Source: Candidatus Multivoradales bacterium
GTDB taxonomy: Bacteria > Acidobacteriota > Thermoanaerobaculia > Multivoradales > JAHEKO01
Length of the DNA stretch: 64,000 nt
Assembly: GCA_965223855.1 (NCBI GenBank)
Contig: CBDCXM010000009.1
Coordinates: forward strand, 192,001-256,000
Direction: 5' to 3'
A program made the position numbers and the translations under genes. The notes beneath the pieces were generated by a model. That model saw only the letters and a list, made by a program, of their open reading frames with translations. It made no database searches and was not told the origin of the DNA. This document shows, piece after piece, positions 11,455 to 45,321 of this stretch; the first letter of the stretch is position 1; each line of letters begins with the position of its first letter.

Positions 11455-12048
11455 ATGCGTCGAATCGTAACCGTGGCGGCCTGTGCCGCCGTGCTGTCGC
11501 TGGCGGCTGTCGGCGGCTTCGCACAACAGGATCCGGGCAAGCTGCAGGCCTGGGAGGATGCCGGTCGGCCCGCGAATCCCGGTCACGGCTTCGACCACGG
11601 CCCCGGACTCACCGGACCGCCGTGCTACAGCGAGGACATCACCGGAGCGATCTCGTGGGACTTCCTCGGCGACCCGGACAACGAAGTCCGTACTCCGACC
11701 CTCACCTGCGTCTCCGCCGATGACATCGGCTGGACCGGCGTCACCCTGACCACGGCCGGCATTTCCTGGGGCCAGGAGTCCAACCTCCAGGTCGCGGCGA
11801 GCGACGGCAGCGACGCCTCGACGATCCAGTTCTTCCCGGGCGCCGCCTCGTCCGGCACCTTCGGGCCGACGACCGGCAACCTCGGCTCGAGCGTCGCCGT
11901 CCTTCCCGACATGGTGCTGCGGATGGAGTTCCACGAGACGAGCTTCGACGACAACTCGAACGCTCCGGACGCGACCTACACCGCCGGCTCGATCGACGTC
12001 GATGGCGTGTTCATCCCGGTGGAGCTGACCGACTTCAGCGTCGACTGA
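11455..12048 (+). CDS. Small secreted acidic beta-rich protein with C-terminal IPVELTDFSVD tag
   Basis: Sec signal peptide (GFA|QQ), good RBS, Gly/Ser/Thr/Asp-rich, one mature Cys pair; function unknown. Confidence 0.85.
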   Translation: MRRIVTVAACAAVLSLAAVGGFAQQDPGKLQAWEDAGRPANPGHGFDHGPGLTGPPCYSEDITGAISWDFLGDPDNEVRTPTLTCVSADDIGWTGVTLTTAGISWGQESNLQVAASDGSDASTIQFFPGAASSGTFGPTTGNLGSSVAVLPDMVLRMEFHETSFDDNSNAPDATYTAGSIDVDGVFIPVELTDFSVD

Positions 12049-13716
12049 TCACTGCACCTCACGGACCGTGACGACCGCGAGGTCGCCGGTCCGAGCCGTG
12101 GTCTCGCTTCCCCCCGGCCAGTAGATCCGCACCGATGCGGGTCGACTGCCGGGGGGAAATGCGTAATGGGTCGCAGGATCGCTTGCCGAAAGGTAGCCGA
12201 AGCTGGAGCGGACCTCTCTCGTGACGACCGACCCGCCGATGACCGCCTCCACGCGAGCGCCGAGGGCCGGACTGCCGAAACGGTTGAGCACCTTCACGAA
12301 CAAGGTAGCGCCCTCGCTCAACCGTCGATTCATGAGCAATTCCGCTGGGGCATCGCGATTGACCACGACCGCGTCGATCCGGCCGTCTCTGTCCAGATCA
12401 CCAAACGCGGCGCCGCGACTGGTTCGTGGCTCGACGGCTCCATGGATCCCGTCGGTGATTCTCTCGAACACCGATCGTGAAGTCTGCTGGAAGAGGAAGT
12501 TTTCCTCCGCATAGCCGCCCCCCGGTTCGACGCGTGCGATAGCTCCGTTGACCTCGAGGAGATCCAGCCGGCCGTCGTTGTCGAAGTCCACCAGGCCGAG
12601 ACCGAAGCGCGTCGCCAGCCGGCTCGACGCAGAGAGACCGTAGCTCGCCGTCCCGTCGGTGAAGTACTCCTCGTTCTGGTTGAGAAACAGCGAGTCGCTC
12701 TGTCCACGCAGGTTGCCCACCAGCACGTCACGGTCGCCGTCGCCGTCGAGGTCGCGAGCGTCCACGCCCATCCCTGCCTTCAGAACGCCTGAGAGATCGA
12801 CCGAGCAACCTCGCAACGGGCATTCGTCCACGAACCGACCTTCGGCCGACCCGACCCACAGCCGGTCCGCCATGGCATCGTTGGCCACGAAAACGTCGGG
12901 CCAGCCGTCACCGGTCAGGTCGCTGACGACCAGGCCGAGACTCGTTCCTTCCGCTCCCGCCAAGCCGACCTCCTCGGTCGCGTCCTCGAAACGTCCATCG
13001 CCCAGGTTGCGATAGAGGCGGTTCTCTGCCGGTGCCTCGTATACCTGAGGACCACAGTACTCCCGCTCGCCGAGCTCGTCGAAACAGGGGCGCTCGACGT
13101 CCAGACTCCAACGAACATAGTTGGCGACGAAGAGATCCAGATCTCCGTCCAGATCGAAGTCGAGGAACGCGGCGCCCGCGCCGAACCCGTCGTCTCCCAC
13201 GCCGGCGCTCGCGGTAGCGGGCTCGAAGCGGCCTCCTCCCATGTTGCGCAGGAGCACGTTCGGCCCGACGTTGGTGACGTAGAGGTCGACGAGGCCGTCG
13301 TTGTCGTAGTCGCCGGTGGCGACTCCCATCCCGAGCCCACGATCGTCGGCGCCGCTACCCGTCGTCACATCGCGAAAGAGGCCTTCACCCGTGTTCTCGA
13401 AGAGCTGATTCCCGGGGCGCCTCTCAGGGTCGCGAACACTACCGGTCTGCACGAAGTAGAGATCGAGGTCGTCATCGCCGTCCATGTCGAAGATCGCGAG
13501 TCCGCCGCTGACCATCTCCGGCAAGGCCCAGTCGCCGTCGGCACCCGAGTCGAGAGTGAAGTCGACACCACGTTGCGCCGCCTCGTCGATCAGCCAGGCC
13601 GAAGGAGGCGGTGTCGCCGCCTGGTTCACGGTCTCCGGCGCACACCCGCTCAAGAGGACGAGGAGTCCGCCGACGACAGCGGCGCCCATGCGCGGGTATC
13701 CCGGGGTCGTCCTCAT
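12049..13716 (-). CDS. CRTAC1/ASPIC-UnbV family FG-GAP repeat lipoprotein (paralog 1)
   Basis: LSGC lipobox; repeated DxDxDGxxDLxVxN loops; TSRGAAFGDLDRDG; GYLSASD. ATG 13716 overlaps upstream TPR stop. Confidence 0.88.
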   Translation of the reverse strand: MRTTPGYPRMGAAVVGGLLVLLSGCAPETVNQAATPPPSAWLIDEAAQRGVDFTLDSGADGDWALPEMVSGGLAIFDMDGDDDLDLYFVQTGSVRDPERRPGNQLFENTGEGLFRDVTTGSGADDRGLGMGVATGDYDNDGLVDLYVTNVGPNVLLRNMGGGRFEPATASAGVGDDGFGAGAAFLDFDLDGDLDLFVANYVRWSLDVERPCFDELGEREYCGPQVYEAPAENRLYRNLGDGRFEDATEEVGLAGAEGTSLGLVVSDLTGDGWPDVFVANDAMADRLWVGSAEGRFVDECPLRGCSVDLSGVLKAGMGVDARDLDGDGDRDVLVGNLRGQSDSLFLNQNEEYFTDGTASYGLSASSRLATRFGLGLVDFDNDGRLDLLEVNGAIARVEPGGGYAEENFLFQQTSRSVFERITDGIHGAVEPRTSRGAAFGDLDRDGRIDAVVVNRDAPAELLMNRRLSEGATLFVKVLNRFGSPALGARVEAVIGGSVVTREVRSSFGYLSASDPATHYAFPPGSRPASVRIYWPGGSETTARTGDLAVVTVREVQ

Positions 13717-15014
13717 TCCGGGTTGCGGGACGCTCGAAGCAGTCCTGCCGCGGCCGGGTCCTCGGGAGTCTCGCCGAATGTCGCTACCAGTAGTTGCTCG
13801 GCCTCCCCTCGCCGACCTGATGCCAGCAGTGCGCGCGATGCCTTGATCTCGCACCGGGCCGCCGACGTCGGTGCCAGTGCGGCGCACCGGCGGTAGGCCT
13901 CGGCCGCTCCTTCGAAATCGCGGCCGCCGGCGAGAATGTCTGCGAGGACGGCATGCGCACGCCAGTCCGACGGCCATCGATCGACGAGATGCGTCGCGGC
14001 TGCGTGCGCCTCACGCAGAAGATCCGGATCGTTGGCGGCCCCGGCCGCCAGATACAGGGTCGCCGACAACTGAAGCACGTGCTCGAAGACGTCCGGCTGG
14101 CTGGCGGAAGCCTCCTCGAGGAGGGTGATGGCGGTTCGGTAGTCCCCTCGAGCTCGATGCGCCAAGGCCAGGACCTGAGTGATCCGAGGGTGCTCGGGGC
14201 GAGACTCGTGATGGAGACTGAGAGCCTCGATTGCCGCGTCGGGCTCGCCTCGCGCCAGAGCTGCCTCAGCTCGATTGAGGGCGGTCTGGGCACCGACAAT
14301 GTAGCGGGACAGCTCGCTCAACCAGGGGTCGGGCCAGAGAGGGGGTGCCACCGGTTCCAGTTCGGCCACACGTCCAGCCGAGCCCGACACCTCGCGCGCT
14401 GCACGCGCTGCGAGAAACTCGACGTACGGGCCGAGCGACACGTTCGGTGCCGGCGGTGTGAGAACCCTGACCGCCTCTTCGATTCGACCTGCCGAGAGCG
14501 CGATTCTCCCCTTGACGGCCCTGACACCAGGTGCTTCCGGATCGTGGGCAAAGGCTCGATCCGCGTGCTCTCGTGCGCGCTCGACCCGCCCGATCTGGAG
14601 GTTCCACAGGGCCGCTGTCCGCAGTGCGGGTAGATAGACGGGGCCGACAGCAATGCACCGCTCGAGCTCCTCGACCGCAGCCTCGCTCCGGCCCGCGGCC
14701 CACAGGGCATGCGCCCGCATGTACCTGAGGAACGGGTTGCCGGCGTCGAGCTCCAAGGCACGGTCGTAGGCATCCTCGCTTCGCACCTCCTCGCCGTTGG
14801 CGTGCAGCGTCAGGGCGAGGTCCATCCAGAGGATCGACTCCTGAGGGTGCGCTGCCAACTGCTCGCGAAGGCCTTCCACCTGCTTGCGCAACTCCGGACT
14901 CCGCATCGCGAGGTCTGGCGTTCCCGCGGCGCTGCGCAGGTCAGCCTCGTCGCCGCCACAGGAAGCAACCATCACGCCTGCCAACAGCACTGCAAGCCGG
15001 GCGGTCCGCATCAT
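13713..15014 (-). CDS. TPR repeat lipoprotein
   Basis: MMRTARLAVLLAGVMVASC lipobox; Ala/Leu-rich TPR helices; central WPDPW motif. Confidence 0.8.
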   Translation of the reverse strand: MMRTARLAVLLAGVMVASCGGDEADLRSAAGTPDLAMRSPELRKQVEGLREQLAAHPQESILWMDLALTLHANGEEVRSEDAYDRALELDAGNPFLRYMRAHALWAAGRSEAAVEELERCIAVGPVYLPALRTAALWNLQIGRVERAREHADRAFAHDPEAPGVRAVKGRIALSAGRIEEAVRVLTPPAPNVSLGPYVEFLAARAAREVSGSAGRVAELEPVAPPLWPDPWLSELSRYIVGAQTALNRAEAALARGEPDAAIEALSLHHESRPEHPRITQVLALAHRARGDYRTAITLLEEASASQPDVFEHVLQLSATLYLAAGAANDPDLLREAHAAATHLVDRWPSDWRAHAVLADILAGGRDFEGAAEAYRRCAALAPTSAARCEIKASRALLASGRRGEAEQLLVATFGETPEDPAAAGLLRASRNPE

Positions 15015-44608: not shown

Positions 44609-44631
44609 CGAAAGACTTCCTCAGGTGAGGG

Positions 44632-45321
44632 TCAGTCGACCTCGAAGGACTGCAGGTCGACCGGAATCATCGCATCCTGGCCGATCAGCTGGAACAGGAA
44701 GTCCGGATTGGTGCCGCCTCCCACGCCGCAAGTGGTCATGCGGTCCCAGTCGGTGCAGGTGGTGCCGAAGCCGCCACCGGGGTTGCGCCACACGGCACCC
44801 GAGTTGCTGGCCGTCGTCCGGTTGCTCCAGAAGTGCTGGCCGTCGGTGCCGAAATTCTGCGACACCTGGATCGCCACCCAGTGGGTGCCCATCGGCAGGA
44901 TGCAGGAGGTCGGCAGCACGATGTTCAGCGAGCCGCCGGCGTCGTTGGCCACGATCCCCGTGTAGGAGCAGGTCGCCGCCGCATCTGGAAAACCGGCGTT
45001 GTCGGGATAGAAGTTCACCGCGACCGAGTCGCTGCCGCCGCCGGAGGTGCCGACGGTGTTGACTTCCTCGATCTCCCAACCCGTCGGGCTGGTCACGACG
45101 AAGTCGTCCGCACCCTCGGAGTCGTAGGCGTCGTAGGCGGCCTCGAAGTCCTGATCCGGCGCGCCGTTGCCCGAGGCGTTGTCGGTCTGATCGTAGAGCA
45201 CGCCGGGGCCGACTGCGGGCACGATACCGGTCGCGCCGGCTTCGACGCTCGGCTGCGCCTGCGCGGCGGCGGCGATCATCACGAGGCCGAAGACGGCCAG
45301 TGCTGCGATGCGAAACTTCAT
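44632..45321 (-). CDS. Small secreted acidic beta-rich protein with C-terminal IPVDLQSFEVD tag
   Basis: Sec signal peptide (AQA|QP), LYDQ...ADDFVV domain, four Cys, strong GC3 bias; function unknown. Confidence 0.88.
   Translation of the reverse strand: MKFRIAALAVFGLVMIAAAAQAQPSVEAGATGIVPAVGPGVLYDQTDNASGNGAPDQDFEAAYDAYDSEGADDFVVTSPTGWEIEEVNTVGTSGGGSDSVAVNFYPDNAGFPDAAATCSYTGIVANDAGGSLNIVLPTSCILPMGTHWVAIQVSQNFGTDGQHFWSNRTTASNSGAVWRNPGGGFGTTCTDWDRMTTCGVGGGTNPDFLFQLIGQDAMIPVDLQSFEVD

Follow-up and report, generated by a model that had tools for sequence, protein, structure and literature searches.

A short C-terminal tag on secreted proteins of Thermoanaerobaculia looks like a transmembrane-less sorting signal linked to a PorU-like C25 peptidase

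Introduction

Three groups of described systems come close to the one considered here, which was found in a 64,000-nucleotide stretch of DNA from a Candidatus Multivoradales bacterium (the window) where two genes encode proteins with signal-peptide-like N-termini that end in the same 11-residue tag. In the type IX system of secretion (T9SS) in Bacteroidota, cargo has an N-terminal Sec signal and a C-terminal beta-structured signal, an immunoglobulin-like (Ig-like) C-terminal domain (CTD) of 70-100 residues. The sequence LPVELxxF may open the Ig-like domain of Bacteroidota T9SS cargo. The CTD is removed by the signal peptidase PorU, which has been proposed to be sortase-like (PMC4560394). In the PEP-CTERM/exosortase and IPTL-CTERM systems the signal occurs in many copies per genome on diverse secreted domains, and its patchy distribution is tied to a dedicated enzyme. 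In type V pili a C-terminal strand fills a groove after processing by a C25 gingipain, and the partners are lipoproteins.

The tag described here shares features with all three. As in T9SS, there is an N-terminal Sec signal, a C-terminal signal of beta structure and a C25 peptidase that is homologous to PorU over about 700 residues, and the glycosyltransferase genes nearby are reminiscent of attachment to A-LPS (anionic lipopolysaccharide) as described in PMC4560394. However, the tag has 11 residues instead of a 70-100-residue Ig-like domain, the peptidase is without the C-terminal ~350 residues of PorU, and the phylum is Acidobacteriota and not Bacteroidota. The tag resembles PEP-CTERM and IPTL-CTERM in being present in several copies per genome, on diverse secreted domains, in a patchy distribution that follows a dedicated enzyme, and in taking exactly the place that those signals have behind the same mature domains of homologues; it differs from both in that it has no transmembrane (TM) helix or basic tail and in that it goes with a soluble C25 peptidase in place of a polytopic exosortase. 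With type V and chaperone-usher pili it shares a terminal beta-strand proposed to complete the incomplete Ig-like fold of another protein, lipoprotein partners and a C25 protease. In contrast to pili, the proposed acceptor is a single small domain of the fibronectin type III (Fn3) kind that natively lacks strand A, and the complementation is a proposal; the cargoes are diverse enzyme-like or lectin-like domains and not pilins, and no polymer is implied. The tag is very probably a sorting signal coupled to the PorU-like peptidase and to this Fn3-like acceptor without strand A.

The tag and its cargo

The window is G000:C9:192001-256000, where G000 is the source genome, an assembly of 4.52 Mb with 68% GC in 9 contigs. 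The first tagged open reading frame (ORF 1; 11455-12048, plus strand, 197 aa) has a signal-peptide-like N-terminus, a near-orphan mature domain and a translation that ends in VFIPVELTDFSVD. Its tag, IPVELTDFSVD, lies at 12013-12045 on the plus strand and is followed by a TGA stop at 12046-12048; the match to the tag pattern at G000:C9:204016-204048 is window 12016-12048. The second (ORF 2; 44632-45321, minus strand, 229 aa) has a signal-peptide-like N-terminus, a beta-sandwich with a weak fold match to lectins and carbohydrate-binding modules, and a translation that ends in AMIPVDLQSFEVD; its tag, IPVDLQSFEVD, is at 44635-44667 on the minus strand (G000:C9:236632-236664) before a TGA stop at 44632-44634. 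Signal-peptide-like segments of both were judged by eye. A reading of 44632-45321 as a plus-strand gene was rejected: the translation is meaningless and the true gene is on the minus strand.

Both proteins fit IPV[ED]LxxFxVD directly before the stop, and this terminal match is far beyond chance. An earlier note on this DNA had proposed a shared terminal tag on two signal-peptide-bearing proteins that are not full-length homologues, and both parts of the proposal stand. BLASTP of one protein against the other gives a single weak segment (E 0.007) that takes in the signal peptides, and when the 44632 family (A2), a family of six paralogues (A3) and the 11455 protein are compared by hhalign, only the last 17-22 columns align. 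At the level of sequence comparison the mature regions of the two proteins are unrelated to any detectable extent. In the AlphaFold2 (AF2) model of the 44632 protein, made from a 12-row alignment (mean pLDDT 62), there is a confident beta-sandwich core at residues 69-154 and a last strand at 210-215, and the tag region 217-229 is a coil tail with pLDDT below 50. The closest fold to this cargo is the lectin-like domain of Cwp84 (TMq 0.42), and the matches to lectin-like and carbohydrate-binding folds are weak. The tag is thus predicted by the model to be a free tail outside the cargo fold.

The tag is not confined to the window. In a six-frame scan of the source genome 14 ORFs end in P[VIL]x[LIVFM]xxFx[VILA] plus 0-3 residues. 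A signal-peptide-like start is present in 13 of these 14; the remaining one is truncated where its contig stops. In six-frame open segments of at least 100 aa, P[VI][EDT][LIVM]xxFx[VIL] occurs 19 times; 14 occurrences have the stop no more than 8 residues away, and the other 5, which are internal, look like chance. With one PVML variant added to these 14, the tagged ORFs number 15. Internal copies that continue into the rest of a domain were also considered and rejected, as there are none in the genome or in the fetched loci of its relatives. Readthrough of the stop codon after the tag was rejected as well: the stops are TGA or TAG, the downstream frames are closed and several genes have terminator-like hairpins on the 3' side.

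When all fetched loci of relatives were added to the source genome, 73 distinct tagged ORFs were gathered, with the consensus [VIT]PVEL[MQL][SE]F[SET][VI][ED]-COOH. V is found at position +1 in all 73, E in 69 and L in 71; the conservation of P, F and V/I is partly circular because the search expression required them. In 64 of the 73 the stop falls exactly one residue past [VI], with D or E last, and there is an enrichment of Gly at positions -5 and -4. Without the tag the 73 proteins fall into 34 BLAST clusters, their sizes range from 116 to 721 aa and 63 have a signal-peptide-like N-terminus by a crude rule. The earlier note would have been refuted had the motif been confined to its two proteins; in the genome and relatives scanned, many other secreted proteins carry it. 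The tag looks like a TM-less C-terminal sorting or anchoring signal on Sec-exported proteins with many different mature domains, as judged from the sequences. Two kinds of tag variant were seen. Genes ending in PVQLQSF[ET][VI][ED] (L088 4221, L091 12744, L092 2733) are convergent with PorU-like genes and abut them, and one protein (P0124) ends in PVELMGYSID, with Tyr replacing Phe.

The tag was also said to lie outside the defined sorting families. When ten tagged proteins were scanned against Pfam and NCBIfam (release 20), no sorting model reached E<=1, including the T9SS CTD models TIGR04183 and TIGR04131 of NCBIfam; the sole recognition was DUF4082 in one cargo. The tagged ORFs do not have the combination of motif, TM helix and basic cluster that is the signature of PEP-CTERM, IPTL-CTERM, LPXTG and GlyGly-CTERM signals. 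Nor do they have the signal of the machinery for beta-barrel assembly (BAM), a C-terminal aromatic residue on a beta-barrel. As had been pointed out, the tag has no aromatic end, the last residue being E or D in 64/73, and the modelled cargo is a beta-sandwich of soluble type. Other T9SS components were looked for. PorV (PF19572) was found in 0/41 genomes including G000, with a positive control in Bacteroides thetaiotaomicron. SprA/Sov (PF14349) gave no match in G000 and its control matched nowhere either, and a scan of G000 with TIGR04183 gave no match, with the control silent as well. No description of the tag motif or of PorU-like enzymes in Acidobacteriota was found in the literature, supplementary files being outside the search; what looked like a gene named 'PorU2' was PorU followed by a superscripted citation number. 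It looks as if the tag matches no defined sorting family and has not been described before.

Homologues of the cargo

Evidence for a sorting role comes from homologues of the two mature domains. At E<=1e-3 there are 453 homologues of the 44632 protein, with names of Acidobacteriota, Thermoanaerobaculia and Xanthomonadales type. Among the 119 of these that were listed, 10 are tagged (2 with L for F), most have a motif of the [IV]P[TS]L type with a TM helix and a basic tail behind it, and two go by the name IPTL-CTERM in their sources. For the 11455 protein a word search gave 1 homologue and HMMER gave 80 representatives. A crude classifier called 17 of the 80 termini PEP-CTERM-like, 7 IPTL-like, 27 other TM plus basic and 7 tagged, and left 22 unclassified. 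PEP/PAP, a TM helix and RRR can be seen in several of the 22, and one further tag variant, beyond the 7, has Y for F. The tag thus sits at the position of a sorting signal, since homologues of both mature domains bear PEP-CTERM or IPTL-CTERM anchors there. It had been suggested in the earlier note that both mature domains resemble ones carried on other anchors elsewhere, and these termini confirm it.

A separate observation concerns seven listed homologues of the 44632 protein (P0010, P0019, P0020, P0024, P0028, P0029, P0054), which end in PTDVSL[TS]xFxGQ, a TM helix and an RRR tail. The V-x-L-x-x-F core of this signal resembles the tag, and the signal could represent an intermediate or a further sorting class that has no name yet.

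Distribution and the PorU-like peptidase

A DNA pattern for PVELxxFx[VIL][DE] followed by TRR was found at 69 places in 15 of 41 related genomes, and the reversed control was found at 0. All 69 matches close with a true stop and never with TGG. With a slightly relaxed pattern 64 of 401 genomes of the class are positive, the control giving 2 matches in all; across the phylum's other classes, 184 genomes have 2 single matches between them, one ending in TGG, and the control likewise gives 2. The carriers of the tag belong to a class of Acidobacteriota, probably the Thermoanaerobaculia to judge from the names of homologues.

The presence of the tag follows that of one subfamily of C25 peptidases. 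Pfam C25 is present in 33 of the 41 relatives, and a short class (open frames of 789-958 aa, more than 230 bits) is present in exactly the 15 tag-positive relatives plus G024. When the PorU-like profile (A1) was run on the 401 class genomes the result was bimodal, with 61 at E<=1e-131 and all others at E>=1e-60. Tag and PorU-like peptidase are both present in 57 of these genomes, the tag alone in 7, the peptidase alone in 4 and neither in 333; the counts include G135 and G207, both scored as neither. Four of the 7 tag-only genomes have one match each, closing with TGG and not with a stop; the one match in G306 is doubtful, and G101 has a divergent C25 gene of 756 aa located 3 kb from its tagged gene. 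The co-occurrence is also seen within genera: tag and peptidase are found together in G289 alone in genus g38 (1/10 genomes), in G240 alone in genus g88 (1/20) and in G377 and G393 alone in genus g93 (2/10), and the contrasts within genera g28, g40 and g34 agree as well.

In G024, which has no strict-pattern tags, the PorU-like gene (L056, G024:C22, 7764-10509, minus strand) is split into two overlapping frames of 561 and 369 aa. The neighbouring sulfatase-like gene is a 191-aa fragment and the acceptor domain is still there. The split peptidase may reflect decay of the system or an assembly error.

The PorU-like peptidases are about 850-950 aa in length with the His and Cys intact. They belong to peptidase family C25 (PF01364 positions 1-373 of 374, E 5e-77), the nearest solved structure is PorU itself (PDB 6za2, E 5.6e-30), and seven members are 36-41% identical with GHGG and Cys invariant. 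The NCBIfam model of PorU (NF033707) gives E 3.9e-63 and a best score of 213.5 bits over model positions 67-744 of 1095. The equivalog cut-off is 420 bits, and the scores of 171-213.5 over positions 67-744 or 338-745 are below it. By sequence, these C25 proteins are homologous to PorU and are not members of its equivalog.

Peptidase and tag are adjacent as well as co-occurring. A Peptidase_C25 protein of about 900 aa lies near tagged genes in 5 loci from 5 genomes, once starting 28 bp past the stop of the tagged gene, and in G030, G236 and G289 the tagged gene is directly followed by the peptidase gene. From the side of the peptidase, 20 of 80 PorU-like loci from named metagenome-assembled genomes have a tagged ORF within 10 kb (14 with the strict motif), several of them adjoining. 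The labels of these 80 loci are mostly Acidobacteriota, Thermoanaerobaculia and Holophagae, with a few Lysobacterales, Methylomirabilota, 'Deltaproteobacteria' and Chitinophagaceae. A predicted complex of the PorU-like peptidase (residues 25-869) and the 55 C-terminal residues of the 44632 protein reached a score of 0.01, the mark being 0.32, and was not used as evidence for or against.

Other C25 proteins and associated ORFs were observed. The source genome has a giant protein of 3299 aa with a C25 peptidase domain (C9:156946-166842, minus strand); giant C25 proteins of 1400-3700 aa are common in tag-negative relatives too, and some have weak Fn3-like matches to the acceptor profile. In three genomes small ORFs that start with MVRRGKKGQAGFIVSAEIIF sit just upstream of the tagged gene and the PorU-like operon (L044 6188-7006, L061 14575-14976, L062 6569-6919). 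They are 116-143 aa with Cys/Pro-rich tail ends, and at the N-terminus they resemble the leader of a prepilin or pseudopilin.

The Fn3-like acceptor domain

The commonest neighbour in 33 PorU-like neighbourhoods is a protein of 150-240 aa encoded directly downstream of the peptidase (22/33). It has a signal peptide, a linker rich in Pro, Ala and Glu and one domain of about 80 residues with motifs that include LRW-x-TASE and YYVESIS. This acceptor domain is present in 54 of the 80 PorU-like loci and is fused in frame to the peptidase in two of them (L133 2093-5482, 1130 aa; L137 9637-12972, 1112 aa). In the 41 relatives the acceptor profile gives E<=1e-40 in all 15 tag-positive genomes and otherwise only in G011 (68% complete) and G024, with E>=1e-8 elsewhere. 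The domain is also found at the C-terminus of a peptidyl-prolyl isomerase (PPIase; L063) and of two DUF1573 proteins beside tagged genes. The tag is thus connected by co-occurrence and adjacency to a module of peptidase and acceptor, which are fused to each other in the two loci named.

What kind of domain is the acceptor? Its profile matches an Fn3-like protein (3mpc, E 0.0056), and the alignment opens at chain residue 23. The AF2 model is Fn3-like (pLDDT 89.4, pTM 0.80) and can be superposed on the N-domains of PelI/Pel3 (Z 10.2-10.4) and on residues 20-92 of 3mpc (Z 9.5, root-mean-square deviation 1.6, 73 residues). The model aligns with single-domain Fn3 structures from their residue ~16-20 onward, and therefore the segment that holds Fn3 strand A has no counterpart in the acceptor. 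The sequence upstream of the domain is a low-complexity linker, and no tag-like strand is fused upstream of the domain in the fetched loci or in the frames of the source genome. The acceptor would accordingly be an Fn3-like domain that starts at strand B and is one edge strand short, as modelled. Fn3 A strands have a P-x-[DE]-L look. A profile search for longer proteins with intact-domain relatives of the acceptor gave small orthologues for all of the best 120 matches.

Gene neighbourhoods

Neighbouring genes were clustered for 54 tagged-gene neighbourhoods (40 fetched from relatives and 14 of the source genome) and separately for the 33 PorU-like neighbourhoods. Proteins with an alkaline-phosphatase-superfamily domain and tetratricopeptide repeats (TPR) are found in 16 of the 54, from 11 genomes, and the same nucleotide pyrophosphatase/phosphodiesterase (NPP) or sulfatase-TPR proteins are found in 17 of the 33. 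CRTAC1-like FG-GAP/UnbV proteins recur near tagged genes (11 loci, 7 genomes), as do PPIases (8 loci, 6 genomes) and Ser/Thr kinases (12 loci, 6 genomes), the last probably through sheer abundance. A PMT_2 GT-C glycosyltransferase (PF13231 E 1.5e-8) is present in 16 of the 33 PorU-like neighbourhoods and a GT2 enzyme in 6.

The window does not contain the strongest partners of the tag, which are the PorU-like peptidase and the Fn3-like acceptor. In the source genome the module is at C8:~12.5-19.8 kb in the order acceptor (its domain at C8:12828-13082), PMT_2, TPR protein, PorU-like peptidase and GT2. A second PorU-like peptidase is at C9:2931319-2934006, and the genome has 2 acceptor copies, both outside the window.

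Within the window, tagged ORF 1 is preceded directly by a periplasmic PPIC-type PPIase (9710-11386, plus strand) and is convergent with an FG-GAP/UnbV_ASPIC protein of CRTAC1-like type (12049-13977, minus strand); both are recurrent neighbours. Further upstream is an alkaline-phosphatase-superfamily protein (Sulfatase/Phosphodiest) with TPR (7575-9713, plus strand; PF00884 2.4e-48, PF01663), which recurs near tagged and PorU-like genes. The Cys/Ser-x-P-x-R formylglycine motif of sulfatases is absent from its catalytic region. Residues ~70-100 have a T-A-P-S-H...TGLYP...HG stretch, which looks like the Thr-nucleophile motif of NPP enzymes, and instead of being a sulfatase the protein may act as a phosphodiesterase or phosphotransferase. 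The gene directly downstream of tagged ORF 2 encodes a phosphodiesterase with TPR (42538-44538, minus strand; PF01663) that belongs to the same cluster as the 7575-9713 protein. Upstream of ORF 2 is a PD40 beta-propeller with an Omp85 barrel (45458-48469, minus strand), seen in that neighbourhood alone among the recurrent clusters listed; because it is not a recurrent neighbour, it is probably unrelated to the tag.

The tagged genes stand in paralogous sets of phosphodiesterase/sulfatase-TPR, TPR and FG-GAP/UnbV genes at 39508-44538 (minus strand) and 7575-15092. The FG-GAP proteins of the two sets are 46-47% identical, and the tagged gene at G000 C8:376688 has a third such set close by. A complete ribosomal RNA operon (5S, 23S, 16S; 19688-25085, minus strand) with two transfer RNA genes in the 16S-23S spacer lies between the tagged genes of the window.

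Proposed mechanism and alternatives

How might the tag, the acceptor and the peptidase work together? Cargo would first be exported by Sec. The tag would then give the acceptor domain its missing Fn3 strand A by strand complementation, and this docking would tether the cargo and bring its C-terminal part before the PorU-like enzyme. As is proposed for PorU in type IX secretion, this enzyme would cut the tag off and pass the cargo to an acceptor molecule, and this molecule could be a glycoconjugate made by the neighbouring glycosyltransferases. We consider this sequence of completion of the Fn3 fold, presentation to the C25 enzyme and sortase-like cleavage and transfer to be the more probable course, with rather less assurance than the coupling of tag, peptidase and acceptor. 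The earlier suggestion that the terminal strand is a donor strand has gained a concrete candidate partner in the Fn3-like domain without strand A; docking itself, like the cleavage, attachment and final location of the cargo, is what we infer. More broadly, the parts may form a general display or sorting system in which one Fn3 domain is split, the tag is captured in trans and a PorU-family sortase acts without type IX machinery. Such a system would be a relative or precursor of T9SS attachment and a diderm cousin of glycosylphosphatidylinositol (GPI)-type and sortase-type anchoring; this wider view is offered tentatively.

Several points weigh against the coupled system with sortase-like transfer. 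A genuine exception is G202, which has 14 tags and in whose 90%-complete assembly no PorU-like gene of the subfamily was found. Conversely, G041, G078, G221 and G396 have a divergent PorU-like gene (E 1e-131 to 1e-200) and no strict-pattern tags. Some absences of the peptidase may be false, since the A1 scan of the 401 genomes scored 2 candidates per genome, and the related genomes in the co-occurrence counts are not independent samples. The gene calls in the fetched loci come from a crude script based on GC content at third codon positions. The sortase chemistry is an extrapolation, as the PorU-like scores fall below the NCBIfam cut-off. A lipobox-like sequence was seen by eye in only about 15 of the 22 acceptor proteins, and membrane anchoring is not universal because the acceptor copy in the source genome has no clear lipobox.

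The alternative that survives best assigns recognition of the tag to the C25 peptidase itself, which would cleave or transpeptidate it; the Fn3-like protein would be an accessory, for example the ligation acceptor or an anchor for the enzyme, and would receive no strand from the tag. The co-occurrence and adjacency of tag and peptidase would stand regardless of the Fn3 protein, and PorU is itself described as a CTD signal peptidase and proposed sortase-like enzyme in PMC4560394. However, the acceptor opens at Fn3 strand B, the tag is as long as a beta-strand and alternates like one, and the fusions and tight linkage of peptidase and acceptor fit a role in recognition. Direct recognition by the peptidase, with no completion of the Fn3 fold, is unlikely.

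It is less likely still that the tag works by non-covalent docking alone, anchoring cargo to the small lipoprotein, the PPIase and the DUF1573 proteins while the C25 enzyme matures or releases it. The acceptor domain does end a PPIase and DUF1573 proteins beside tagged genes, and the arrangement resembles that of type V pili. Against it, the 15 cargoes and 2 acceptor copies in the source genome suggest turnover over stoichiometric anchoring, and the peptidase co-occurs with the tag as tightly as the acceptor does.

A partner among the window neighbours, for instance the Omp85-PD40 barrel reading the tag as a beta-signal, or the CRTAC1-like, TPR or PPIase proteins, is very improbable. Of the partners named in the earlier note, the TPR (here NPP/sulfatase-TPR), CRTAC1-like and PPIase proteins do recur near tagged and PorU-like genes, but the Omp85 protein that it also named does not recur and lies outside the recurrent clusters listed. 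In the source genome, where CRTAC-like loci number ~22 and sulfatase-like loci ~37, just 3 of 14 tagged genes are near such clusters, and the tag ends in D/E and not in an aromatic residue.

Least probable of all is that the motif has no sorting role and is a final strand conserved in a beta-sandwich fold that the cargoes distantly share, associated with the peptidase by shared ancestry: many cargo domains do look like beta-sandwiches and a strand precedes the tag in most, but homologues of the same domains swap the tag for PEP-CTERM or IPTL-CTERM, the tag is strictly terminal, its presence within genera tracks the peptidase and AF2 leaves it unstructured.

Implications

If the coupling of the tag with the PorU-like peptidase and the Fn3-like acceptor is correct, the tag would represent a new class of bacterial sorting signal, short, without a TM helix and set by its distance to the C-terminus, for which candidate machinery has been identified. 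A naturally split Fn3 pair of tag and acceptor could serve as a tool for protein ligation or display. The tag gives a simple annotation rule for a set of cargo proteins in abundant and mostly uncultured Acidobacteriota of soil and sediment. The coupling would also mean that C25 'sortases' of the PorU type act beyond the Bacteroidota and independently of type IX secretion, which would bear on the evolution of the T9SS attachment complex.

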